This document shows positions 2,449 to 14,290 of a DNA stretch of 64,000 bases, one piece after another (position 1 is the first letter of the stretch; each line of letters begins with the position of its first letter). The notes beneath the pieces are model-generated. The model had not been told where the DNA came from. It saw nothing but the letters and a program-made list of their open reading frames with translations, and made no database searches. The stretch is from NCBI GenBank assembly GCA_947585595.1, contig CANPXB010000005.1, positions 7,483-71,482 on the forward strand. Reading direction: 5' to 3'. A program made the position numbers and the translations under genes. The stretch comes from an uncultured Bacilli bacterium (lineage in GTDB: Bacteria; Bacillota_I; Bacilli_A; RF39; UBA660).

Positions 2449-4212
2449 ATGGTAAATTTTAAAGAAGATGAAAAATTAAATGTTTTAAATCATAGTTGTG
2501 CTCATTTACTTGCACAAGCGGTAAAACATTTATATCCTCAAGCTAAGTTTTGGGTAGGTCCGGTTGTTGAAGAGGGATTCTATTATGATATTGATTTAGG
2601 AGACGAAAAGATTACCGATGAGGATTTAGAGAAAATTGAAAAGGAAATGAAAAAATGTTCTAAATCAGCTAAAAATATTATCAGAAGAGAAATATCTAAA
2701 GCAGAAGCTTTAGAGATGTTTAAAGATGATGAATATAAGATTGACTTAATTGAAAGAATGGAAGATGGAACAACTATTTCTTGTTATACCCAAGGTGATT
2801 TTACAGATCTTTGTCGTGGACCACATATGTCTAATACGAAAGAAATTAAGTATTTTAAATTAACTAAATTTAGTGGAGCTTATTATAAAGGTGATGCTAA
2901 TAATAAAATGCTTCAAAGAATATATGGTGTTTGTTTTCCTACGGAAGAAGAGTTAAATGAACACTTAAAAGAATTAGAAGAAATGAAGATGAGAGATCAT
3001 CGTAAGATAGGTAAAGACTTAGAGATATTCATGGTAAGTGATTTAGTAGGTAAAGGATTACCTATGTATTTACCTAATGGTTATATTGTATGGGAATTAT
3101 TAGAAAACTATATTAAAGGTAAAGAAAGAGCTTTAGGTTATTTACATGTTTTAACTCCACCTATTGGTAATGTTGAACTTTATAAGACTTCTGGTCACTG
3201 GGATCATTATAAAGATAATATGTTTCCTAAGATGGAAGTTGAAGGTGAGGAGTTTGTTTTAAGACCAATGAACTGTCCTCATCATATGATGATTTATAGT
3301 AATAATGTTCATTCATATCGTGATTTACCAATTCGTATTGGCGAGATTGCTCGTGATGCAAGATTTGAAACTAGTGGATCATTAAAAGGTATTGAAAGAG
3401 TTAGAACTTTCTGTCAAAATGATGCTCACTTATTTGTTACTCCAGAACAAATTGAATCTGAATTTTCTTGCGTAGTTAATTTAATATTAGATGTATATAA
3501 AGAATTAGGTATTAAAGATTTTAGATTTGAATTATCTTTAAGAGATCCTGAAGATAAAGTTAAATATTATCCAGATGATGAGATGTGGAATAATGCCGAA
3601 ACTACTTTACGTAATGTTTTAAATGATTTAGGTTATGATTATGTAGAGAAGATTGGGGAAGCAGCATTCTATGGACCTAAGTTAGATGTTCAAGTTAAAC
3701 CAGCGGTTGGTCCTGAATATACATTATCTACTTGTCAATTAGATTTCTGTTTACCTATGCGTTTTGATTTAGGTTATATAGATAGTGATGGTAGTAAGAA
3801 AACTCCTGTTGTTTTACATAGAGCAATATTTGGTAGTATAGATAGATTTATTGCTTATTACTTAGAAGAAACTAAAGGATATTTACCTACATGGTTAGCA
3901 CCTGTTCAAGTTCAAGTAGTACCAGTAAATATTCAATATCATGAAGCTTATAGTAATGAAGTTTATAATGCTTTAAAAGAAGCGGGATTTAGAGTAGAAT
4001 TAGATGCTCGTAATGAAAAACTAGGTTATAAACTAAGAGAATCAGTTATTAGAAAGATTCCTTATATGTTAATATTAGGTCAAAAAGAGGTTGATGATAA
4101 GACTGTTTCTTATCGAAGAGCTGGTAGTGAAGAAACTATAACTGTATCATTAGATGAATTTATTAAATTAATGAATGATGATATAGCTACTAAGAGAAGA
4201 TATGATAAATAG
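2449..4212 (+). CDS. thrS: Threonine--tRNA ligase, short form lacking the N-terminal TGS domain
   Basis: 587 aa. It starts directly at the editing-domain motif HSCAHLLAQAVKHLYP. Class II core motifs are present (RPMNCPHH, FCQNDAHLF, LHRAIFGSIDRFI) plus a C-terminal anticodon-binding domain. Preceded by a Thr T-box. Confidence 0.95.
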   Translation: MVNFKEDEKLNVLNHSCAHLLAQAVKHLYPQAKFWVGPVVEEGFYYDIDLGDEKITDEDLEKIEKEMKKCSKSAKNIIRREISKAEALEMFKDDEYKIDLIERMEDGTTISCYTQGDFTDLCRGPHMSNTKEIKYFKLTKFSGAYYKGDANNKMLQRIYGVCFPTEEELNEHLKELEEMKMRDHRKIGKDLEIFMVSDLVGKGLPMYLPNGYIVWELLENYIKGKERALGYLHVLTPPIGNVELYKTSGHWDHYKDNMFPKMEVEGEEFVLRPMNCPHHMMIYSNNVHSYRDLPIRIGEIARDARFETSGSLKGIERVRTFCQNDAHLFVTPEQIESEFSCVVNLILDVYKELGIKDFRFELSLRDPEDKVKYYPDDEMWNNAETTLRNVLNDLGYDYVEKIGEAAFYGPKLDVQVKPAVGPEYTLSTCQLDFCLPMRFDLGYIDSDGSKKTPVVLHRAIFGSIDRFIAYYLEETKGYLPTWLAPVQVQVVPVNIQYHEAYSNEVYNALKEAGFRVELDARNEKLGYKLRESVIRKIPYMLILGQKEVDDKTVSYRRAGSEETITVSLDEFIKLMNDDIATKRRYDK

Positions 4213-4236
4213 ACAAGTTTAACTTGTCTTTTTTTA
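4211..4236 (+). terminator. Intrinsic terminator of thrS
   Basis: agacaagtt / aacttgtct stem followed by a T7 run. Confidence 0.8.
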
Positions 4237-4295
4237 ATATTGTAATTGTCGGTTATTTAAGATATAATTTTAAGAGAATAGGGAGTGTGGCAAGT

Positions 4296-7200
4296 ATGAA
4301 GATTATGTTGATGGATGCTACAAAATTAGTAAATTTAACTCTTCCTAATGATGTATTTGGTAACTACTGGATAGTTAATGCTAATAAAGAAAACTTAGTT
4401 AGTGTTGAAGCATCTGACGGCAACTGGGTATTAAAAAGTAATAGTGAAGTTAAAGTATTTAGAAATGGAACAGCTGTTGATGATACTTTACTTGAATATG
4501 AAAAGTTTTATACCCTTAAGAATGTATTACTTGGGGATAGTTATGTTATTTATACTTGTCCAGTCTATGATGAAAATGCTTTACAATTAAATATATCTAT
4601 AAATAGTTTAAATGGAAATAATACTTGGTATATAGGTAATAATGGAGCTCAACTTGGTGATGGTAGTTCTAATTATCCAAATATTATTTCTTATGAGCAA
4701 CCAGGAGTAGCAAGAAATCAATTAAAGTTAGATTATAATAGCGGGGTTTATTCTGTTACAAATATAAATCCGCAAATTCCAATGTATGTAAATGGAGCAC
4801 CAGCAACTAGTGCTGATTTAAGATATGGTGATACAATTTTTATTTTAGGTTTAAAATTATCAATTATTAAAGATATCTTTTATATTAATAATCCTAATAA
4901 ATTAGTTAAATTTGATTCGCAAATGTTTAATATGCGTATGGTTCCTGAATTAGATTATTCTAAGATTCCAACTGAACCAGACCCAATTATTGAAATGTAT
5001 AAAAAAGAAGATTATTTCTTAAAGCCACCTCGTTTTGATGAAAGATTAGAAGAAAAGACTTTAGTAATAGATCCACCTCCAGCTGCCCAAAAGCAAGAAG
5101 AAATGCCAGCTATTTTAACAATGGGTTCAATGATGATGATGGGTATGAGTTCAATGATGACAGGAATTATGACTTTAACGAATGTTATTAATGGAACAAC
5201 TGAGTTATCTTCAGCTTTACCTTCTTTATTAACAGCAGCAGCAATGCTTTGCTGTATGCTTGTTTTACCAACAATTAGTAAAATGTATAATAAACATAAA
5301 AAAGTTGTTTATGAAAGAAAAAGACAAGCTACTTATAGTAACTATGTAAATAAAAAAAGAGAAGAATTCTTAACTGAAATGAAAAGAGAACAACAACTTT
5401 TAATTGAAAAATATATTCCATTAAAAGATGTTGGAGATATTATTCTTTATAAAAAGAGAAATTTATGGGAAAAGAATGTTGATGATTATGATTTCTTATC
5501 TTTAAGATTAGGTATTGGTTCTATTCCACCATTCTTTACAATTAACTATCCTGATGAACACTTCTCAATGGAAGATGAAGATAACTTAATGGGATATTTA
5601 AGAGAACTAGAAAAAGAAACAGATTTACTTGAAAATGTTCCAGTTACTTATTCTTTTGTGGAAAAATATATAACTGCTGTAATAGGGCAGAAGAGTGTTA
5701 CTAATCCGTTCTTAAGAGGATTATTACTACAAATCTTTGCTTATCATGGCTATGATTCTTTAAAGGTATGTGTATTTACAAATAAAGAGAATGAAAAATT
5801 CTGGGAAGATATTAAAGATTGTCCTTATTTCTGGGATGATAATAGAACAATAAGATTCTTTGGTACTAATACTGATGAAATTAGTCAAATAAGTTCTTAT
5901 TTTGAAGAATTACTTAGTAGTATTAAAGAAGCTAACGAAGATAGAGATACCCTTGGAGGACAAAAAGCAACAGCTAAGTTAACAACGAGATATTTAATTA
6001 TTACTGATGATATTGATTTGGTAAGAAATGTTAGTGTTATTCGTTCATTAATTGAATCAGTAGAATATGTTGGTATTAGTTTAGTTATATTTACAGAGAA
6101 GTTAAATTCTTTACCAAATGAAGTTGAACACTTTATCAGTGTTGATGAACGTACTGGTGGAGTATTTGAAAGAGTATTATCTGATAGTAGAAGAATTAAC
6201 TTTGTACCAGATTTTATGTATGGATCGTTAGAAAAATATACTTATGTTTTATCTAATATTCCAATAGCATTAAATGGTGGTAAGTTCCAATTACCAGCTT
6301 CATATTCTTTCTTGGAAATGTATAATGTATCTAATGTTAATCAATTAAATGCTTTAGCCAAATGGAAAGAAAGTGATCCAATTAATTCACTAGCTGTTCC
6401 AATTGGAGTTAATGAATATGGTGATTTATTTAAGTTAGATTTACATGAAAAAGCTCATGGACCACATGGTTTAATTGCTGGTATGACTGGTTCTGGTAAA
6501 TCAGAATTCATTATTACGTTTATTTTAAGTACAGCAATTAATTTCCATCCATATGAAGTACAATTTGTATTAATCGACTATAAAGGTGGAGGTTTAGCTG
6601 GAGCTTTTGAAAATAGAGAGACTGGTCTTAGATTACCACACTTAGCAGGTACAATTACTAACTTAGATGTTAGTGAGATTAATCGTAGTTTAGCTTCATT
6701 ACAAAGTGAGCTTAAAAGACGTCAAGCAGTATTTAATCAAGCCAGAGATAAAGTTGGTGAATCAACAATAGATATTTATAAATATCAAAGATTATATCGT
6801 AATGGTCAAGTAGATGAACCAGTATCACACTTGTTTATTATTTCCGATGAGTTCGCTGAATTAAAAGCTCAACAACCAGATTTCATGAACGAACTTATTT
6901 CAACAGCACGTATTGGTCGTTCACTTGGAGTTCACTTAATCTTAGCAACACAAAAACCTAGTGGTGTTGTTAATGACCAAATTTGGTCCAATGCGAAGTT
7001 TAAAGTCTGTTTAAAAGTTCAAGATAGATCAGATAGTCAAGAAATGATTAAGAGACCTGATGCGGCTTCATTAAAAGAAACTGGACGTTTCTACTTACAA
7101 GTTGGTTATGATGAATACTTTGCAATGGGTCAATCTGCTTGGACTGGCGCCCCTTATTATGAATCAGATGTTAGAAAGAAGAAAGTTGATAATTCAATAA

Positions 7201-8963
7201 CATTTGTTGATAATTTAGGTATGCCAATTAAAGTAGTAGAAGATGGACGTAATAGTGTTTCTGGTGTATTAAAAGGTGAAGAATTACCTAATATTATGAA
7301 ATACTTAGTAGATGTTTCTAAAAAAGAAAATATTAAGGTTAAGCAATTATGGCTTAATGCTTTAGCACCAGTTATATATATTGATGCTTTAAAAGAAAAA
7401 TATAGTTATAAGAAAATTACTTGTGATATTAATCCAGTTATTGGTGAATATGATGCCCCTAATTTACAAAAACAAGGATTACTTACAATGCCAATAACTA
7501 AAGAAGGTAACTGGATAGTTTATGGTATGGCCGATAGTGGTAAAGAAGAAATGATTAACTCTTTAGTTTATTCTTGTATTACAACTTATTCGCCAGCTGA
7601 ACTTAATATGTATTTACTTGATTTTGGAGCTGAAACTTTAAAAGTTTATCGTAAAGCCCCACAAGTAGGTGATGTTATCTTACAAAATGATGTTGATAAG
7701 GTAATTAACTTATGGAAAGTTATCAGTGATACAATAGCTAAGAGAAAGAAATTATTTGCTGATTATGGTGGTGATTATGTTTCTTATTCTAAAGCAACTG
7801 GTAAAGTAATTCCGAATATTATAATTATTATTAATGGATTTGAATTATATAATGAAAACTTTGGTGATGATACATTTGATTTATTAGCAACACTTACTCG
7901 TGATTGTCAAAAATATGGTGTTTACTTTATTATGACATCAACAACATCTAATGGTATTAGAAATAGACTTTCTCAATACTTGCCAAATCACTTAGTCTTC
8001 CAAATGAATGATAAATATGATTATTCATCATTACTATCTAGAACTAAGATTGAACCAGCTAATGTTACAGGACGTGGTTTAGTTAAATTGGAAGAAGTAT
8101 TTGAATTCCAAGCTGCTGTACCAACAGAAAAAGAAAAACTTAATACTTTTGTTTTAGATAAGATTAATGAATTATGTAAATTATATCCAGAAAGTGCTCC
8201 TAAAGTACCAGTATTACCAGAAGTAGTAACTGTTGCTTATTGTGCTGATGAAAGAAAAGGAGTCAATTCTATTCCAGTTGGTATTGAAAAAGAATCATTA
8301 CAAGTTAGAACATTCGATTTGACTAGAAGTACAGTTAATATTATTACAGGTATGGAATTTAATGAAATTAAGAACTTTGGTGAGTTATTTATTAGAGAAG
8401 TTGCTAATGTAGTAGGTAAGAATTGCTATGTTTATGACTTAGAAAAGGCTTATAAAGATTTAGAAAATTATACAACATATTATGATAATTCTATTTTAGA
8501 TAACTTTAAAGCTTTTGGTAAACAAGTATTTGACATGTATAATAAATATAAAGAATCTAGTTTTGATGTTAATTCATTAAATGAATATGGTGAATATGTT
8601 TGCTTTATTGTTGGAATTGATAAGTTTAAGAATATGTTAGGTACTGAATTTGATGGTGCTTATAGTGGTTTAATTTCAATGGTTAAAGGTATGCCTAAAG
8701 TAAGATTTGTAATTATAGATTCTAGTGATAATATTAAAAAACGTGAATTTGAGCCTTGGTATAAAGATACTGTTTCTGGTACAAGAGGTGTATGGATCGG
8801 TAATGGTATGGGTACACAATATACGATTAAATCAACGTTATCTTCAAGAGTATTATCAGCTAAACTAGAAAAGAATTTTGGTTATTTTGTAGACGGAAAT
8901 ACAACTGTTTTAGTTAAGGTAATTTCTGAAATGGGTGAAGAAGAAGTTTACGAGACATTATAA
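4296..8963 (+). CDS. essC: Type VII secretion system ATPase EssC/YukB (FtsK/SpoIIIE family)
   Basis: Start moved to ATG 4296 (GGGAG RBS), because the tracked 4224 start lies inside the thrS terminator. N-terminal FHA-like region. Two TM helices (AILTMGSMMMMGMSSMMTGIM and LLTAAAMLCCMLVLP). Three FtsK/SpoIIIE-type modules follow. The first has Walker A GMTGSGKSE (6480-6506) and Walker B LFIISDEFAEL. The second has GMADSGKEE (7524-7550). The third has no recognisable P-loop. Confidence 0.9.
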   Translation: MKIMLMDATKLVNLTLPNDVFGNYWIVNANKENLVSVEASDGNWVLKSNSEVKVFRNGTAVDDTLLEYEKFYTLKNVLLGDSYVIYTCPVYDENALQLNISINSLNGNNTWYIGNNGAQLGDGSSNYPNIISYEQPGVARNQLKLDYNSGVYSVTNINPQIPMYVNGAPATSADLRYGDTIFILGLKLSIIKDIFYINNPNKLVKFDSQMFNMRMVPELDYSKIPTEPDPIIEMYKKEDYFLKPPRFDERLEEKTLVIDPPPAAQKQEEMPAILTMGSMMMMGMSSMMTGIMTLTNVINGTTELSSALPSLLTAAAMLCCMLVLPTISKMYNKHKKVVYERKRQATYSNYVNKKREEFLTEMKREQQLLIEKYIPLKDVGDIILYKKRNLWEKNVDDYDFLSLRLGIGSIPPFFTINYPDEHFSMEDEDNLMGYLRELEKETDLLENVPVTYSFVEKYITAVIGQKSVTNPFLRGLLLQIFAYHGYDSLKVCVFTNKENEKFWEDIKDCPYFWDDNRTIRFFGTNTDEISQISSYFEELLSSIKEANEDRDTLGGQKATAKLTTRYLIITDDIDLVRNVSVIRSLIESVEYVGISLVIFTEKLNSLPNEVEHFISVDERTGGVFERVLSDSRRINFVPDFMYGSLEKYTYVLSNIPIALNGGKFQLPASYSFLEMYNVSNVNQLNALAKWKESDPINSLAVPIGVNEYGDLFKLDLHEKAHGPHGLIAGMTGSGKSEFIITFILSTAINFHPYEVQFVLIDYKGGGLAGAFENRETGLRLPHLAGTITNLDVSEINRSLASLQSELKRRQAVFNQARDKVGESTIDIYKYQRLYRNGQVDEPVSHLFIISDEFAELKAQQPDFMNELISTARIGRSLGVHLILATQKPSGVVNDQIWSNAKFKVCLKVQDRSDSQEMIKRPDAASLKETGRFYLQVGYDEYFAMGQSAWTGAPYYESDVRKKKVDNSITFVDNLGMPIKVVEDGRNSVSGVLKGEELPNIMKYLVDVSKKENIKVKQLWLNALAPVIYIDALKEKYSYKKITCDINPVIGEYDAPNLQKQGLLTMPITKEGNWIVYGMADSGKEEMINSLVYSCITTYSPAELNMYLLDFGAETLKVYRKAPQVGDVILQNDVDKVINLWKVISDTIAKRKKLFADYGGDYVSYSKATGKVIPNIIIIINGFELYNENFGDDTFDLLATLTRDCQKYGVYFIMTSTTSNGIRNRLSQYLPNHLVFQMNDKYDYSSLLSRTKIEPANVTGRGLVKLEEVFEFQAAVPTEKEKLNTFVLDKINELCKLYPESAPKVPVLPEVVTVAYCADERKGVNSIPVGIEKESLQVRTFDLTRSTVNIITGMEFNEIKNFGELFIREVANVVGKNCYVYDLEKAYKDLENYTTYYDNSILDNFKAFGKQVFDMYNKYKESSFDVNSLNEYGEYVCFIVGIDKFKNMLGTEFDGAYSGLISMVKGMPKVRFVIIDSSDNIKKREFEPWYKDTVSGTRGVWIGNGMGTQYTIKSTLSSRVLSAKLEKNFGYFVDGNTTVLVKVISEMGEEEVYETL

Positions 8964-8990
8964 AGGTTAACGGGTGTTAACCTTTTGTTT
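8963..8990 (+). terminator. Hairpin / likely terminator after essC
   Basis: aaggttaac-gggt-gttaacctt (9-bp stem) followed by TTTTGTTT. Confidence 0.5.
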
Positions 8991-9124
8991 ATTCAATTGA
9001 CTTTACATTTTATAAAGTGTATTATAAATATATAAGAGTATAATCGATGGTTGTGGGGAATTGGTCAGAAATGGTGTGACTATCATATATTCTTAAGTCT
9101 ACGATTTTAATAGGAGGTTTTATT

Positions 9125-9382
9125 ATGAATAATAATAAGGTCTGTGTAGATTTGATTGTACCTAGCATTGAAGAACGATACAATGTTTTCATTCCTGTTA
9201 ATAAGAAGACTATTGAAATTATATTCTTATTAAATAAAGCAATTAGTGATATGACTGATAATAGTTTTCCTATTTCAGATAATTTATCATTAATTAATGC
9301 TGATAATGGAGCGGTTTATGATGTTGATAAGACGTTTTTGGAAAACGACATTTTAAACGGGGCGAAAATTATATTGATATAA
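9125..9382 (+). CDS. yukD: YukD/EsaB-like small ubiquitin-fold T7SS protein
   Basis: 85 aa with a strong RBS (TAGGAGG). The sequence pattern parallels B. subtilis YukD as I recall it: N-terminal VCVDLIVP...YNVFIP and C-terminal DILNGAKIILI versus CGITNGDRLEIL. Sits next to essC. Confidence 0.65.
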   Translation: MNNNKVCVDLIVPSIEERYNVFIPVNKKTIEIIFLLNKAISDMTDNSFPISDNLSLINADNGAVYDVDKTFLENDILNGAKIILI

Positions 9383-9397
9383 GGAGGTGTAAGATTA

Positions 9398-9715
9398 GTG
9401 TCAGTTGATTTTGAAATTAAAAGTGAAGAAATGGCTCAAGCAATAGCTATGTTAAAAAGTGCTGCTGAATCTATGAGTGATGTAGCTGATGAAATGAAGA
9501 ATACTGTTAAAAATGTATTACTTACAAGTGGTTTAAGTGGTGATACAGCAAATACTTTAGCAGAAAGATATGATCAAGATGTATTAGCAACAATTCGTCA
9601 ATTTAATGAAGAGTTAAATGAATACATAGCTAAAAACGAAACGGTATTAGGAAAAGCTGAAGATTTAAGTTCAGAAACGAATAGAATAGCTAATACTACA
9701 GGTGCAATTAAATAA
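9398..9715 (+). CDS. Small all-helical WXG100-superfamily-like protein without a WXG motif; candidate T7SS substrate or chaperone
   Basis: 105 aa, AAGGAGG RBS plus GTG start. Helix-turn-helix composition with a central SGLSGD turn. T7SS context. Confidence 0.5.
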   Translation: MSVDFEIKSEEMAQAIAMLKSAAESMSDVADEMKNTVKNVLLTSGLSGDTANTLAERYDQDVLATIRQFNEELNEYIAKNETVLGKAEDLSSETNRIANTTGAIK

Positions 9716-9732
9716 AGAAAGGATGAACTATA

Positions 9733-10050
9733 TTGAATAATGAAAGATTTGATGCTGAAGCTGCAACTGAAGCACTAAGAGCAGCATTAGCAAATAATGA
9801 AGAATTAGTTAATAAGTTTTCAGAAGCTAATAAAAATGTTGAAGCAGCATTCACTTCTGGTGGAGAAGCTTTAAGTGGAAACTTAGGAGCTATTGCTGGT
9901 AATTTATGGACTGCAGGTTCTGGAGAATCATTTGAACATAAAGTTAAAGCTGAAACAGAAACTTTCCTTGCAGATAAAGTAAATGAGATTATTAATGAAA
10001 TGCAATCATTTACTGATACAGCAACTCAAACTTATGGTAATGGTAATTAA
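9733..10050 (+). CDS. Small WXG100-like helical protein with a relaxed W-x-x-G turn
   Basis: 105 aa, TTG start after AAAGGA. Central turn LWTAGSGESF between two predicted helices. T7SS context. Confidence 0.55.
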   Translation: MNNERFDAEAATEALRAALANNEELVNKFSEANKNVEAAFTSGGEALSGNLGAIAGNLWTAGSGESFEHKVKAETETFLADKVNEIINEMQSFTDTATQTYGNGN

Positions 10051-10053
10051 TTT

Positions 10054-10081
10054 ATATACTGCATAAATTTATGCAGTATAT
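10054..10081 (+). terminator. Perfect 12-bp palindromic hairpin (terminator or processing site)
   Basis: atatactgcata-aatt-tatgcagtatat. No clean U tract follows, so its function is uncertain. Confidence 0.35.
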
Positions 10082-10140
10082 TATAAATAAAAAATCTTGG
10101 TTTTTTATTTATAATATACTTGTAGTATAGGAGGAATAAT

Positions 10141-10437
10141 ATGGCGTATAATTTTGTTATTGATACTGATGCTTGTGAGACGTTAAAAGGTAATTTGATT
10201 GATAAAGCAGATGACCTATGTGCTAATAGAGATGCAATTACTAGTGGTATTAACAATATTGGTAATTCTTGGTCTGGTGATAACTATGAGGTTTTTAAAC
10301 GAAATTATGAATCACTTTTACCTTCTTTAGAGTCTGTTGAAGAACTAGTTAGAGCTTATGCAAATTGTGTAGAAAGTTCTATTGAATATATAGATACAGC
10401 TATTGAAGCAGTAAAAAAATACTTGGACCTTAATTAG
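10141..10437 (+). CDS. WXG100 family protein (EsxA-like T7SS substrate)
   Basis: 98 aa, TAGGAGG RBS. Canonical central motif NSWSGDNYEVF between two helices. Confidence 0.8.
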   Translation: MAYNFVIDTDACETLKGNLIDKADDLCANRDAITSGINNIGNSWSGDNYEVFKRNYESLLPSLESVEELVRAYANCVESSIEYIDTAIEAVKKYLDLN

Positions 10438-10452
10438 AGGAGGAATAATTAT

Positions 10453-10866
10453 ATGGCGGAAAAGACTTTAGAAGAAGATAAAATCTATTTTAATCTTAAT
10501 ACTTCTAACGAAAAATTAAACAAGTCACTTTCATCTTTTAAGGATAAATTTGATGCTGAAGGAATGGAAGGAAGCATTAATGAAATTGATGGATTATTTG
10601 ATGAGTTTCAAACTATATCAGATGAGGTTAATACATTAATGGAAGATAATGTAGGGACTTCACCAACTAATGGTGATGAGTCAGCTATAATGGGTGAATA
10701 TGGTGAAAAGGTCTATGGCTTATATGATGTCAATAAAGTTGCTTTTGATGATTTTGGTGAACACTTTAGTAATTATACAGCAGCATTAAATGATATTTCT
10801 AATAAAGAACAAGATTTTTCTGAAGAATCAGGACGTGTATATGGTGATGAAAACTTTATAAATTAA
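10453..10866 (+). CDS. Helical hypothetical protein; candidate targeting factor (Lap-like) for the downstream large substrate
   Basis: 137 aa, GAGGAGG RBS, acidic and helical. Its position between a WXG100 gene and a large substrate mirrors LXG-toxin operons. No motif recognised. Confidence 0.45.
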   Translation: MAEKTLEEDKIYFNLNTSNEKLNKSLSSFKDKFDAEGMEGSINEIDGLFDEFQTISDEVNTLMEDNVGTSPTNGDESAIMGEYGEKVYGLYDVNKVAFDDFGEHFSNYTAALNDISNKEQDFSEESGRVYGDENFIN

Positions 10867-10884
10867 TTTTTGGAGGTTATAGGT

Positions 10885-11136
10885 ATGTATGTAGATTATA
10901 AAAATATAAATGGTGCTTTAGAAAAAATAGATGAAGTATTAGAAAATTTGCCGAAAGCGATAGATGAACTTACTACTGACATTTTGTATTCTGACGTTTG
11001 TAATTTTAATCAAGCACGAGCTAAATTAAATAAATATGTAGAAGATTTAAAAGCATTTCGTGAAACATTAGTAAGTAATGTTAATAATATGAAAAGACTT
11101 GACAATGAGATAGAAGGTAGGAGTTGGGCGGCATGA
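10885..11136 (+). CDS. Small helical hypothetical protein; candidate targeting factor (Lap-like)
   Basis: 83 aa from ATG 10885 (GGAGG RBS). Its stop overlaps the next start in an ATGA (11133-11136), which implies translational coupling. Confidence 0.45.
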   Translation: MYVDYKNINGALEKIDEVLENLPKAIDELTTDILYSDVCNFNQARAKLNKYVEDLKAFRETLVSNVNNMKRLDNEIEGRSWAA

Positions 11137-13868
11137 CATGTTTAAAAGTTAATAAAGAAGAGCTACAGTCAATAAAGCAAGAATTATATGATATTAGACA
11201 TACTGCTTTCTTAGCTTATTATGATGATATAGCAAAATTTCAAGAGGCTGCAACTGATAAAGCAACGTCATGGGACAATTCGTATAATAAGTGGCAAAAC
11301 TTTAAAGATGAAGCTAGTAGTCAAGTTAATCTTGAAGATTATAGAAAAAAATGGCTTACAGAGCAAAATGTTGGTGAAAAATTTAACTTTCATGCAGATT
11401 ATAATTATGATGCCTATTATGCTAGAATAAATGAAATTGCTAAAGAAATGTTTGATGAGAAAGTAAAAGAATATAAAGATTTAAATTCAAAATTAAGGGA
11501 TGGGTTTTACGACTCTTATAAAAATACAATATGTAAGGTTGTTAATAATTTAGGATATGTAATAAGTGCTATAAATACATTTGAAAATAACTCCGTTAAT
11601 AATATCGATAGTTATTTATCTGAGGATTACTTAGTGAGAAATGCAGATGTTATAGCCTTTGCGGGTGAAGAATTTGTTCAAGCAGATGGTAAAAAAGTTG
11701 AGATTTCATCTTTAAAAATGAAGTCAGAAGATGGTGGCTTGCATGATATAGGTGAAGATGTTAATTGTCTTTATGCTAGAACTGTTGGAACTGCTAAAGT
11801 TGTAACTGTTGCAGCAATTGTAGCTGCTAATAGTGAAGACTTTCAAAATCTTAAGACTGACGAAGCTAGATGGGCTTATATTAATAATGTAATTGGTGAA
11901 ACAGTTGAAGCAACTGATGAAACTTTTGATGATTGGTATGATAAAGGTTATTTTGCAGCAACTACTCAAGAAGAATTTGCTGAATTATATGAAGATTTAA
12001 CTGGTATGGAATATGATCCAGATGCTGTTAATGCACATATGGATGCATATATTAATAAATTTGGTTTTGAAGATGAAGCTGATTTTGAACAATGGTTATT
12101 ATCTGGAGCAGGTTCAGTGTTAACACCATTTATGGTAAATAAGGCTTTAGAGAAAAATGGTCCTTTAACTGATGAAGAACTAGAACAAATGGGCTTACAT
12201 GATGTTGTTGAAGGAAGAGCAAAAGTAGGTATGGAAGTAACTGCTGAAGATGATGACGCATTATTAGGAGCGGCTGGTGGCTCAGGTGGTGGCGACGGAA
12301 GCGGGGTAAGCGTTAAGGTTGACGAGTTTGGTGAATCAGAATCAGAACCTGGACCACTTGATGATGTTATCGAAGAAACTGAAGCACCTGTAGATCCTGA
12401 AGTAAAAGATCCAAATGATGGTGTTATTCCTGATAATAGAACTAGTGGTGTGTTAGAAGATCCTATTCCTGATCCTCCTGGATTAGATAATAAGATGGAT
12501 AATGCGACAGCTGATCGTTTGGCTGAAGAAAGATTCTATGATCAATTTACTCCTGAACAATTAGCTGATTATAGAAATAATCAAAGAATTGAATATGAAG
12601 GATATACAATTGAAGAAGCAACTGATTTCTTTAGTGATGCAGGTTATAGTTTACCTGATGCTAAATTCTTAGCTGAAAATAAAGAACTTGGTATAACAGC
12701 ATTCTTAGCTGCTAAACAAAGCGCTGATATGGCTGATATGTCAAGACAAATTGCTCAAAGTGCTAATATGGATATGACGATGTTTGATACTAAATTTGAT
12801 GATGGAGCTTCATATCAAGATTTAGTAAATGGTAACACTAAAGCATTCTTAACTAATCCAAATAGTGATCCTAATGTTTCTAATGCTAAACAAAGTATGA
12901 CAAATGCTAAATCTAACTATGATTCAGCTGTAGATAAAGCTAATAAATCAGTTAATGAAGCTAATGAAAATAAAGAAAAATTAGATTCTGTTAAGAAAGA
13001 TATTGTTAAGAAATCAGGTAAAGATACAAGTAAATGGTCTGATGAAGATGTTGAACAATATAATGAAGCAGTTAATAAATATAACGATTCTGTAAAACAA
13101 GCTAATGAAGATGTTGCTAATGCGCAAAATGCTAAGACAGAATATGATAATTCAAAGACAGAATATGAAAATAGTAAAGAAGAATTCTATGAGAAGATAA
13201 AAGAGGAAGAAGCTTCAACCGAAACAGGAGATGGTAATAATGATTTACCAAATTCTGATGAACCAAATGGTGAAGGAACTGGTTCTTCTAATGATGCAGG
13301 TAATAGTAATCAGAATCCTTCTGAAACTCCAGGTAATGGAGGGCATGAAACACCTGAACCACCAAGTAATGGTGGAAATGATACACCTGGAAGTCCAAGT
13401 AATGGTGGACATGAATCAAGTGATACACCAAGTGGTGGAGGACAAAATGCTCCTGAAGAACCAAGTGGTGGTAATAATGAATCATCTAATAATGATGACT
13501 TAATACCTGATATTCCTAGTGGTGAAAGTGATAATAATCCTGGATCTGATGGTACTGGTTTTGGATTTAATAAATCATCAGGCGATAACAATCCTGGTAA
13601 TTATAATGATGGTAATAATGGTAATAACGGTAATAATGGAGATAATGGTTTAAGTGCTCCACCATCAAATGATGAATATGTTGGCGTTGATGATTCTGGT
13701 AGTGGCCTTGGTATAAGAGGCGATAGTGATTATAATCCAAATGAGCCTTCTACTATAAGTAATCCTGTGGATAATCCTAATTCAGAGTATATTTATATAG
13801 ATGAGTCTCAAGATGGTACAGATGATGATGAAAAACCTAGAGTATCAAATAGTGGTATAGGATTTTAA
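11133..13868 (+). CDS. Large (911 aa) candidate T7SS substrate with a helical N-terminus, coiled-coil module and low-complexity G/N/S/P tail
   Basis: ATG 11133 after GGTAGGAG. No strong TM helix and no recognised enzymatic domain. The C-terminal half is paralogous to that of the 17975..20488 product (KWSDEDVEQYNEAVNKYNDSVKQ versus KWSKEAVAEYKEAVKA). Followed by a DUF4176-like gene. Confidence 0.6.
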   Translation: MTCLKVNKEELQSIKQELYDIRHTAFLAYYDDIAKFQEAATDKATSWDNSYNKWQNFKDEASSQVNLEDYRKKWLTEQNVGEKFNFHADYNYDAYYARINEIAKEMFDEKVKEYKDLNSKLRDGFYDSYKNTICKVVNNLGYVISAINTFENNSVNNIDSYLSEDYLVRNADVIAFAGEEFVQADGKKVEISSLKMKSEDGGLHDIGEDVNCLYARTVGTAKVVTVAAIVAANSEDFQNLKTDEARWAYINNVIGETVEATDETFDDWYDKGYFAATTQEEFAELYEDLTGMEYDPDAVNAHMDAYINKFGFEDEADFEQWLLSGAGSVLTPFMVNKALEKNGPLTDEELEQMGLHDVVEGRAKVGMEVTAEDDDALLGAAGGSGGGDGSGVSVKVDEFGESESEPGPLDDVIEETEAPVDPEVKDPNDGVIPDNRTSGVLEDPIPDPPGLDNKMDNATADRLAEERFYDQFTPEQLADYRNNQRIEYEGYTIEEATDFFSDAGYSLPDAKFLAENKELGITAFLAAKQSADMADMSRQIAQSANMDMTMFDTKFDDGASYQDLVNGNTKAFLTNPNSDPNVSNAKQSMTNAKSNYDSAVDKANKSVNEANENKEKLDSVKKDIVKKSGKDTSKWSDEDVEQYNEAVNKYNDSVKQANEDVANAQNAKTEYDNSKTEYENSKEEFYEKIKEEEASTETGDGNNDLPNSDEPNGEGTGSSNDAGNSNQNPSETPGNGGHETPEPPSNGGNDTPGSPSNGGHESSDTPSGGGQNAPEEPSGGNNESSNNDDLIPDIPSGESDNNPGSDGTGFGFNKSSGDNNPGNYNDGNNGNNGNNGDNGLSAPPSNDEYVGVDDSGSGLGIRGDSDYNPNEPSTISNPVDNPNSEYIYIDESQDGTDDDEKPRVSNSGIGF
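13332..13490 (+). repeat. In-frame 33-bp tandem repeat, about 4.8 copies
   Basis: GNGGHETPEPP / SNGGNDTPGSP / SNGGHESSDTP / SGGGQNAPEEP / SGGNNESS, read from successive 33-nt units. Confidence 0.8.
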
Positions 13869-13886
13869 AGGTAAGGAGGAAATGAA

Positions 13887-14261
13887 ATGAGAGAAAAGTA
13901 TTTGCCAATTGGAACAGTAGTTTTATTAAAAGGCGGAAGAAAAAGAGCAATGATTACAGGATTCTGCTCTGTTGCTCAAGAAAACCAAGAAAAAATTTAT
14001 GATTATAGCGGATGTGTTTATCCAGAAGGATATTTAAGTTCTAATCAAGTTTGTTTATTCGATCATGATCAAATTGAAAAAATTTTCTTCCTTGGCTTTG
14101 AAGATGATGAAGAAAAAGTGTTCAAAGATAAATTAAATAAAATTGTATCTTTAATTGAACATGATAATGGTAATACAAATGTTGATTCTGCAAATGAGCA
14201 ATCTAAGAATGAGAATGCAGAAAAAATCACACCATTTGCACCTGCTTCTGAGGAAGCTTAG
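13887..14261 (+). CDS. DUF4176-like protein (T7SS-associated), copy 1
   Basis: 124 aa, AAGGAGG RBS. N-terminal signature YLPIGTVVLLKGGRKRAMITGF...YDYSGCVYPEG...FDHDQIEKIFFLGF, as I remember the DUF4176 family. Paralogous to 20515..20955 and 20973..21248. Confidence 0.7.
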   Translation: MREKYLPIGTVVLLKGGRKRAMITGFCSVAQENQEKIYDYSGCVYPEGYLSSNQVCLFDHDQIEKIFFLGFEDDEEKVFKDKLNKIVSLIEHDNGNTNVDSANEQSKNENAEKITPFAPASEEA

Positions 14262-14267
14262 TAAAAA

Positions 14268-14290
14268 AGAAAGGCTTTTGCCTTTTTTTT
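14268..14290 (+). terminator. Intrinsic terminator
   Basis: aaaggc-tttt-gccttt followed by a long T run. Confidence 0.7.

Follow-up and report, generated by a model that had tools for sequence, protein, structure and literature searches.

A Candidate Type VII Secretion Cargo Module with a Variable N-Terminal Head in an Uncultured Bacilli Bacterium

Introduction

What does a type VII secretion system (T7SS) export when the large protein encoded behind its small partner genes is not an LXG toxin? To our knowledge, large cargo of the T7SSb type is known almost entirely from the LXG toxins of cultured streptococci, staphylococci and bacilli. The question is raised by five genes found in a 64,000-nt stretch of DNA from an uncultured Bacilli bacterium (assembly GCA_947585595.1, contig CANPXB010000005.1), which is referred to here as the window and whose coordinates are used throughout. 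The genes encode, in this order, a WXG100 protein of 98 amino acids (g98), proteins of 137 (g137), 83 (g83) and 911 (g911) amino acids, and a DUF4176 protein. They were compared with the loci of five related genomes (L001, L002, L003, L006 and L007), so that six loci including the window were considered. A preliminary description of this DNA had likened the unit to an LXG toxin module with Lap escorts and a terminal immunity gene. Judging from the sequence, we propose, with a probability of about 60%, that the five genes constitute a chaperoned, partner-escorted module for a non-enzymatic T7SS cargo rather than for an LXG toxin.

Organization of the Five-Gene Unit

All five open reading frames lie on the + strand where the preliminary description had placed them: g98 at 10141-10437, g137 at 10453-10866, g83 at 10885-11136, g911 at 11133-13868 and the DUF4176 gene, coding for 124 amino acids, at 13887-14261. 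The ATGA in which the stop codon of g83 overlaps the start codon of g911 (11133-11136) was also confirmed in the sequence. The genes g98, g137 and g83 share one reading frame, and g911 and the DUF4176 gene likewise share one. The mechanically called reading frame of g83 begins at TTG 10870 (88 amino acids), the start adopted here being the ATG behind GGAGG; that of g911 begins at TTG 11124 (914 amino acids), and here too the ATG was taken as the start. The unit is closed after the DUF4176 gene by an intrinsic-terminator-like hairpin (14265-14290, + strand), an 11-pair stem followed by a T run. Since the same five-gene order is found again in all five related-genome loci, it is not a product of chance. 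The unit is placed in a T7SS context because EssC is encoded upstream of it with a score of 981 bits, g98 belongs to the WXG100 family, the DUF4176 protein reaches 96 bits, the ATGA overlap couples g83 to g911 and the terminator delimits the whole.

The Large Protein Belongs to an Undescribed Family without an LXG Domain

The earlier statement that the large protein has no recognisable toxin domain was upheld for its whole family, as no Pfam domain, neither LXG nor toxin, was found in 53 members. The profile and structure searches that were to seek an LXG-like fold in its N-terminus gave no match to one. The LXG model PF04740 matched neither g911 (E<=1) nor any of 13 members (E<=0.1) or 53 members (E<=0.01) of the family, and a six-frame search of the bacterium's own genome gave a best match of E=0.25, elsewhere in the genome. 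Profile searches of the PDB with the N-terminal domain and with the whole family returned nothing meaningful and did not reach the LXG chain 8GMH_B, while Foldseek comparison of the g911 model with the PDB gave nothing at E<0.1, and the 50 matches listed included no LXG chain. With Pfam hidden Markov model (HMM), six-frame, PDB profile and Foldseek searches all without LXG, the assignment of g911 to the LXG proteins was rejected. Aligned by hhalign with the WXG100 profile built from g98, neither the N-terminal domain nor the whole family gave a significant result.

Thirteen relatives of g911 were collected by a word-based search and 60 when a profile of the N-terminal domain was run exhaustively with HMMER against 1.84 billion representatives. 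Most have 625-1050 amino acids and carry the profile domain, as do all the others, at or near the N-terminus; the few shorter ones are probably fragments. Of 27 genomes sampled from the genus, 25 carry the family, mostly as a pair of copies separated by about 7 kb; it is found in none of 120 genomes from 73 other genera of the order. It is thus an undescribed, genus-restricted family. Full-length EssC of the T7SSb type was found above the curated cut-off in 66 of 121 sampled genomes of the order (0.6-1.6 Mb), nearly all of them from one family. PF04740 was absent (E<=1e-8) from 151 genomes of the bacterium's own family, and by this search the lineage seems to use only non-LXG substrates.

The g911 protein is strongly acidic (net charge about -114) and has no transmembrane segment and no signal peptide. 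It was modelled with AF2 from the 53-sequence alignment (mean predicted local distance difference test, pLDDT, 69.7). Its layout is that of the family: an N-terminal helical/beta domain, a short hydrophobic helix, an acidic linker, a helical central domain and a disordered tail. The N-terminal domain (residues 1-345; 11133-12167, + strand; pLDDT mostly 75-94) is modelled as two helices, 8-62 and 92-152, flanking a beta-hairpin at 71-90 (strands 71-76 and 85-90), after which a mixed alpha/beta part with an NAFYTY motif follows; W47, Y95, E151, G201 and Y286 are conserved among close members. At its end, residues ~318-345 (12084-12167, + strand) form a hydrophobic helix rich in small residues, the window of highest mean hydrophobicity in the protein, of which residues 323-333 are predicted with low confidence. 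A hydrophobic segment rich in G, A and S stands at the equivalent place in all six loci; it is transmembrane-like in four family members, and that of the window is short and below the transmembrane threshold.

The linker (residues 346-448; 12168-12476, + strand) is acidic, Gly/Pro-rich and disordered, with 15% each of D, E and G and a pLDDT of 30-42 over residues 373-430. The central domain (residues 449-700; 12477-13232, + strand) is predicted with the highest confidence (pLDDT 92-98) and consists of five short helices followed by a helical hairpin of 49 and 63 residues (580-628 and 637-699) with an invariant tryptophan, W635, in its turn; LAAFLAAKQSAD and KWS..YN..YN are conserved in it. Since residues of the central domain are nearly invariant in the 53-sequence alignment, the architecture of the family is fixed. 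The positions conserved in at least 90% of the family are F, G, T, Y, W, A and N together with a single Asp, and such residue types are not what an enzyme looks like.

The tail (residues 701-911; 13233-13865, + strand) is indeed of low complexity, as the preliminary description had it: G, N, S, D and P make up 18, 18, 14, 11 and 11% and disorder is predicted (pLDDT about 30-40). It contains 11-residue repeats (33-nt tandem repeat at 13321-13444) and three motifs of the type [DN]xGxG[FLIV] at residues 805, 853 and 905, and ends in PRVSNSGIGF. Further downstream an 837-aa protein is encoded which is a full-length paralogue of g911, sharing with it the NAFFTY segment, the central domain and the tail; it has in addition an inserted hydrophobic hairpin of ~57 residues and three copies of the KWS repeat. 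The tails of both paralogues (13233-13865 and 20300-20488) repeat [DN]-x-G-x-G-[FLIV] and end in RV(S/T)xS(G/A)IG(F/I). This terminal motif is common to the 837-aa paralogue and the close orthologues, is not present in L003, L006 and L007, and may be a short linear signal.

A Variable Cassette Whose Boundary Lies inside the Cargo Gene

Comparison of the window with L001 by blastn showed 87% identity over 4233-10156, ending 16 nt into g98, nothing aligned over 10157-12392, and 75% identity from 12393, within the linker of g911; the tail was unaligned and similarity came back at 13850. The unalignable block of 2.2 kb (10157-12392, + strand) therefore comprises g98, g137, g83 and codons 1-420 of g911, and its downstream boundary is held by the linker. 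All genes of L001 and L002 stand in the order of the window. Protein identities to these two loci are 19-30% inside the block, that is 23-27% for g98, 19% for g137, 25-30% for g83 and 22-24% for the N-terminal domain of g911. Outside it they are 59-93%: EssC is 93% identical, the 85-aa protein at the YukD position 93-95%, HelD 92% and the DUF4176 protein 85-88%, and the central domain of g911 is 59-65% identical when L003 is included. Polymorphism of g911 is thus inverted with respect to LXG toxins, the N-terminus being variable and the C-terminal body constant.

Among the four close loci there are three types of head, each as distant from the others as from the far relatives. The three small proteins and the N-terminal domain therefore behave as one exchangeable unit, and this co-exchange, as read from the sequences, is the strongest evidence available for a physical cooperation between them. 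The DUF4176 gene follows the constant part of the locus, not the cassette. A co-varying C-terminus of EssC was also considered and rejected, as windows of 100 residues, taken beyond the mis-called start, all have 87-99% identity (87-89% in the most variable one).

The Small Partner Proteins

The first gene had been described as coding for a WXG100 protein, and this proved correct. The match of the single g98 sequence to PF06013 is weak (E=0.012); the profile of six orthologues matches the EsxA/EsxB structures 3GVM, 3O9O, 3ZBH and 4J42 (E=1.2e-5 to 2e-4), and W44, G46 and Y49 are invariant across the six loci, W44-x-G46 forming the WXG motif. By profile and invariant residues, g98 is a genuine WXG100 protein.

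The helical protein g137 is the shortest version of its family, whose members share a conserved N-terminal domain of ~130 residues; in relatives a variable C-terminal extension is added to this domain. Over residues 1-131 it aligns with proteins encoded at the same position in L001 (164 amino acids), L002 (154), L003 (459; L003:8295-9674), L006 (407; L006:8473-9696) and L007 (1396; L007:1351-5541), and G81, F101, F122 and Y130 are invariant. As its relatives reach 1396 amino acids, g137 is not simply a small escort. The 459-aa relative weakly passes a YD-repeat model (17.5 bits, cut-off 15.8), and it may be that the g137 family is in its turn a polymorphic T7SS substrate, of which this genome keeps only the N-terminal stump.

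The third partner, g83, is small and helical, with orthologues of 71-79 amino acids at the same position in the five other loci and a conserved C-terminal (I/L)D(N/D)E(V/I)xG. Neither g137 nor g83 had a significant match to a Pfam or NCBIfam family or in PDB profile searches, and no T7SS structure was found for either in the latter.

A Putative DUF4176 Chaperone in the Presumed Immunity Slot

The assignment of the last gene to DUF4176 was confirmed (PF13780, E=1.3e-27, 96.1 bits, cut-off 25), and its product also matches 9DCS_A (E=1.5e-6), the small DUF4176 protein that stabilises TelD (PMC12478183). Proteins of this family were shown experimentally to be cargo-specific T7SSb chaperones and not immunity proteins (PMC12478183); they attach to a hydrophobic toxin segment that would otherwise be disordered, and are themselves not exported (PMC12478183; 10.64898/2026.03.12.711312). 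The 124-aa protein fits the small DUF4176 class (70-130 amino acids; Ltc/Lcp-type). An immunity gene had been expected to end the module, and this expectation failed: the slot is occupied by the DUF4176 gene, followed by the terminator, and no immunity-like gene was found in or directly after the unit among the open reading frames of the window or by Pfam.

Residues 1-75 of the DUF4176 protein are 100% identical to those of L001, and nearly all of the first ~90 are invariant across the six loci. This holds even in loci where identity of the presumed cargo drops to 21-25%, and the core is more conserved than EssC, which is 82% identical between the window and L006.

A fourth DUF4176 gene of the same genome (127 amino acids; contig C14:6312-6695, L015) is located outside the T7SS locus, directly 3' of a gene for a 655-aa protein whose N-terminus is disordered and which has one transmembrane segment. 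The pair is flanked by a D-Ala-D-Ala carboxypeptidase gene and proS.

A Proposed Model of Partner-Escorted Export

How may the parts work together? In the proposed mechanism g911 would be an exported cargo and not an LXG toxin, its N-terminal domain (1-345) being held in a cognate complex with g98, g137 and g83. This head complex would present the cargo to EssC as Lap and WXG100 partners present LXG domains. The DUF4176 protein would act as a cytoplasmic chaperone, covering a hydrophobic segment of the cargo before export and staying behind; residues ~318-345 are the most likely site, because of their hydrophobicity, low pLDDT and position after the N-terminal domain. The exported body would be non-enzymatic, with the constant helical domain ending in the tryptophan-turn hairpin and then the long disordered acidic tail, and the exchangeable head on this body would be swapped between lineages along with its three partners. 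The physical complex, the chaperone site, the export and the extracellular role of g911 are what we infer from the sequences. A non-enzymatic body is suggested because the 53 members have no Pfam domain, the conserved residues are of the types given above and no immunity-like gene follows. The preliminary description had left two options, a surface or fibrous cargo and a toxin not recognised as such; the evidence leans away from an enzyme.

A more detailed version can be offered tentatively, as a possibility that we would not bet on: g911 may be secreted or displayed at the surface of this gut bacterium of reduced genome, with an antigenically or receptor-variable head, swapped together with its three partners, on a constant chaperone-bound body with an acidic tail. 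It would then be no antibacterial toxin, and the near-invariant DUF4176 protein would be a common adaptor to EssC.

Several observations weigh against the proposed module. The reading of g137 and g83 as Lap-like escorts is supported by the WXG100 gene at the start of the unit and by their divergence together with the cargo N-terminus, but not by family membership, since none of the Lap families DUF3130, DUF3958, DUF5082 and DUF5344 was found in them in Pfam at E<=1. The complex of the three small proteins with the N-terminal domain is proposed because of co-variation and position only, and the mirror-tree correlations comprise only 15 non-independent pairs. The DUF4176 core is much more conserved than any stretch of the cargo, none of which is comparable to it across the six loci; a simple one-to-one fit of cargo and chaperone therefore fails to explain its conservation, and the protein may have a further conserved partner, for example EssC. 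Finally, EssB/YukC (PF10140) and EsaA (TIGR03929) had no match in the 96% complete genome (EssA was not among the searches), and it is therefore uncertain how, or whether, the apparatus works like T7SSb.

Alternative Explanations

Could g911 be an antibacterial T7SS toxin after all, most plausibly a membrane-active one like TspA, TelD and TelE, whose killing part is an unrecognised fold or a glycine-zipper-like hydrophobic helix and whose producer is kept safe by the small DUF4176 protein? Small DUF4176 genes typically go with membrane-depolarising toxins (PMC12478183), as the stabilisation of TelD exemplifies, and the G/A/S-rich helix is conserved in character. The 837-aa paralogue has its hydrophobic hairpin and two DUF4176 genes, and the upstream partner genes resemble toxin-targeting factors. 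However, an immunity-type gene, polytopic membrane or other, is missing in and after the unit, the C-terminal body is constant instead of polymorphic, and the module is a fixed core locus of 25 of the 27 genomes of the genus. As no toxin family was met among the 53 members and the hydrophobic segment of the window stays below the transmembrane threshold, we consider such a toxin improbable.

The absence of YukC/EssB and EsaA suggests another role, that of envelope-spanning parts, a stalk or conduit, by which the two large paralogues would replace these components in a reduced T7SS and would not be cargo. Both stand at fixed positions in every locus and both have long helical hairpins, one of them also a transmembrane hairpin. 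This explanation is weakened by the sister genera, in which full-length EssC is found (66 of 121 genomes) and the g911 family is not (0 of 120). Moreover, g911 has neither a transmembrane segment nor a signal peptide, its N-terminal domain is hypervariable although EssC is 93% identical, and DUF4176 chaperones are known for exported cargo, so that the likelihood given to it is lower still. The order of the parts could also be reversed in the manner of TslA, the central tryptophan-turn hairpin being a WXG/LXG-like export domain, the variable N-terminal domain the payload and the small proteins payload-specific binders, possibly neutralisers. It would agree with this that the constant parts, the central domain and the DUF4176 protein, track the conserved EssC while the N-terminal domain and the small genes vary together, that the best hhalign register sets W635 on the WXG tryptophan, and that in the 837-aa paralogue the corresponding repeat gives a weak match to the WXG100 HMM. 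Neither similarity is significant, though (hhalign E=0.046, probability about 1%; HMM E=0.076), g98 is itself a WXG100 protein, a class normally paired with export domains, and the N-terminal domain has no conserved residues of catalytic type. The reverse order is therefore the least credible of the explanations considered.

Comparison with Known Systems

A partner-escorted cargo module has its closest counterparts in the T7SSb export complexes of LXG toxin, Lap1/Lap2 (Lap3/Lap4) and Ltc/Lcp, those of TelA, TelB, TelD and TelE (S. intermedius, S. gallolyticus). In both, small helical or WXG100-like genes directly precede a large protein with a helical N-terminus, translation is coupled and a DUF4176 gene belongs to the unit. 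In TelA and TelE, Ltc binds directly after the N-terminal domain (PMC12478183; 10.64898/2026.03.12.711312), the place where the hydrophobic, poorly predicted segment of g911 is found. The LXG domain of TelA is an elongated helical domain split by two short antiparallel beta-strands (PMC10801868), and in the model of the g911 N-terminal domain long helices are likewise split by a short beta-hairpin, a likeness for which Foldseek gave no match at E<0.1. In contrast to these complexes, PF04740 is found neither in the 53 members of the g911 family nor in the own genome nor in the 151 genomes of the bacterial family, there are three upstream partners instead of two and none of a Lap family, and the DUF4176 gene is located downstream and not between lap genes and toxin gene. 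A toxin domain and an immunity gene are absent here, and variation is in the N-terminal module, not in the C-terminus. The LXG/Lap-type architecture of the preliminary description thus describes the probable mode of working fairly but did not hold as a family assignment.

In S. aureus, TslA is reportedly a T7SSb lipase toxin of reverse orientation, with a C-terminal LXG-like domain and immunity lipoproteins. Like TslA, g911 may have its variable or functional part at the N-terminus and an export-related helical part at the C-terminus, and small helical partners are encoded alongside; unlike the unit described here, which has neither an enzyme signature nor an immunity gene, TslA has a recognisable lipase domain, and the likeness of the g911 hairpin to WXG/LXG is not significant. 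The essC-variant modules of S. aureus and Listeria resemble the locus in that substrate and partner genes come in blocks behind a conserved T7SS core, and these blocks are swapped as cassettes between strains. In those modules, however, EssC changes at its C-terminal end along with the module, whereas in the loci compared here it is 93% identical throughout and the boundary of the cassette is found within the cargo gene. The loci of T7SS subtypes c-j (Garrett, Higginson and Palmer 2024, PMC11217815) are similarly reduced: they consist of an EssC-type ATPase, WXG100 proteins and a small protein at the YukD position, and small WXG100-related partners flank the candidate substrates. The component set of the window matches none of them. 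A kinase, a phosphatase and an FHA protein are missing, as are EspG-like and Ig-repeat proteins, and there is neither EssB nor EsaA, although EssC scores as T7SSb type.

The Locus and Its Surroundings

The genome has 1.55 Mb and is 96% complete, with a GC content of ~29%; the relatives are metagenome-assembled genomes of "uncultured Bacilli" from rabbit and mouse gut. The locus is of T7SSb type, with EssC, the 85-aa gene at the YukD position and many WXG100-like genes, and is flanked by thrS (2449-4212, + strand) and helD. The mechanically called frame of EssC, whose type was set by the curated cut-off of TIGR03928 (778 bits; E=8e-295), spans 4224-8963 (+ strand) and begins at TTG 4224; orthologues begin at the methionine of MKIMLMD, which corresponds to ATG 4296, the likely start, and gives 1555 amino acids. 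Downstream of it, on the + strand, are the 85-aa gene, which has no Pfam match, and two genes for helical proteins of 105 amino acids, followed by the five-gene unit. On its 3' side a WXG100-like pair, genes for proteins of 456, 314 and 136 amino acids, the gene of the 837-aa protein and two further DUF4176 genes follow, and the series ends with helD, infC, rplT, ftsA, ftsZ and spoIIGA, all on the + strand.

In the gap that separates g98 from the second 105-aa gene, a perfect palindrome of 28 nt (ATATACTGCATAAA/TTTATGCAGTATAT) was found at 10054-10081. This position still belongs to the DNA with 87% identity to L001, and the palindrome could serve as an operator or form a hairpin in RNA. In the window essC directly follows thrS, and in three relatives (L001:1775-2995, L002:1800-3014 and L003:832-2049) a gene for ~405 amino acids without Pfam match stands between them. 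Just upstream of thrS, a 543-aa protein with a hydrophobic N-terminus and a serpin domain (E=7e-51) is encoded at 547-2178, adjoining a DUF7192 fragment at the start of the window. Ten more WXG100-like matches, four of them above the Pfam cut-off, were found outside this contig, namely on contigs C4 (~50.7-54.6 kb and 75.4 kb), C12 (~23.9-25.1 kb) and C21 (~17.7-18.3 kb) of the same genome, and canonical EsxA may be encoded away from essC.

Significance

What is new is a genus-specific family of putative cargo that is polymorphic in its N-terminal module rather than in its C-terminus. It gives concrete form to a family of large putative T7SSb cargo that lacks LXG but retains a partner of the WXG100 type and a putative chaperone, the DUF4176 protein. 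If the proposal is true, the logic of export by partner plus chaperone would be more general than the LXG domain, and DUF4176 chaperones would serve non-toxin cargo too. The sharply bounded cassette would then provide natural swap variants for probing the contacts that decide recognition by EssC. One may also ask, given a near-invariant DUF4176 core beside a fast-evolving cargo, do these chaperones dock on the machine as well?

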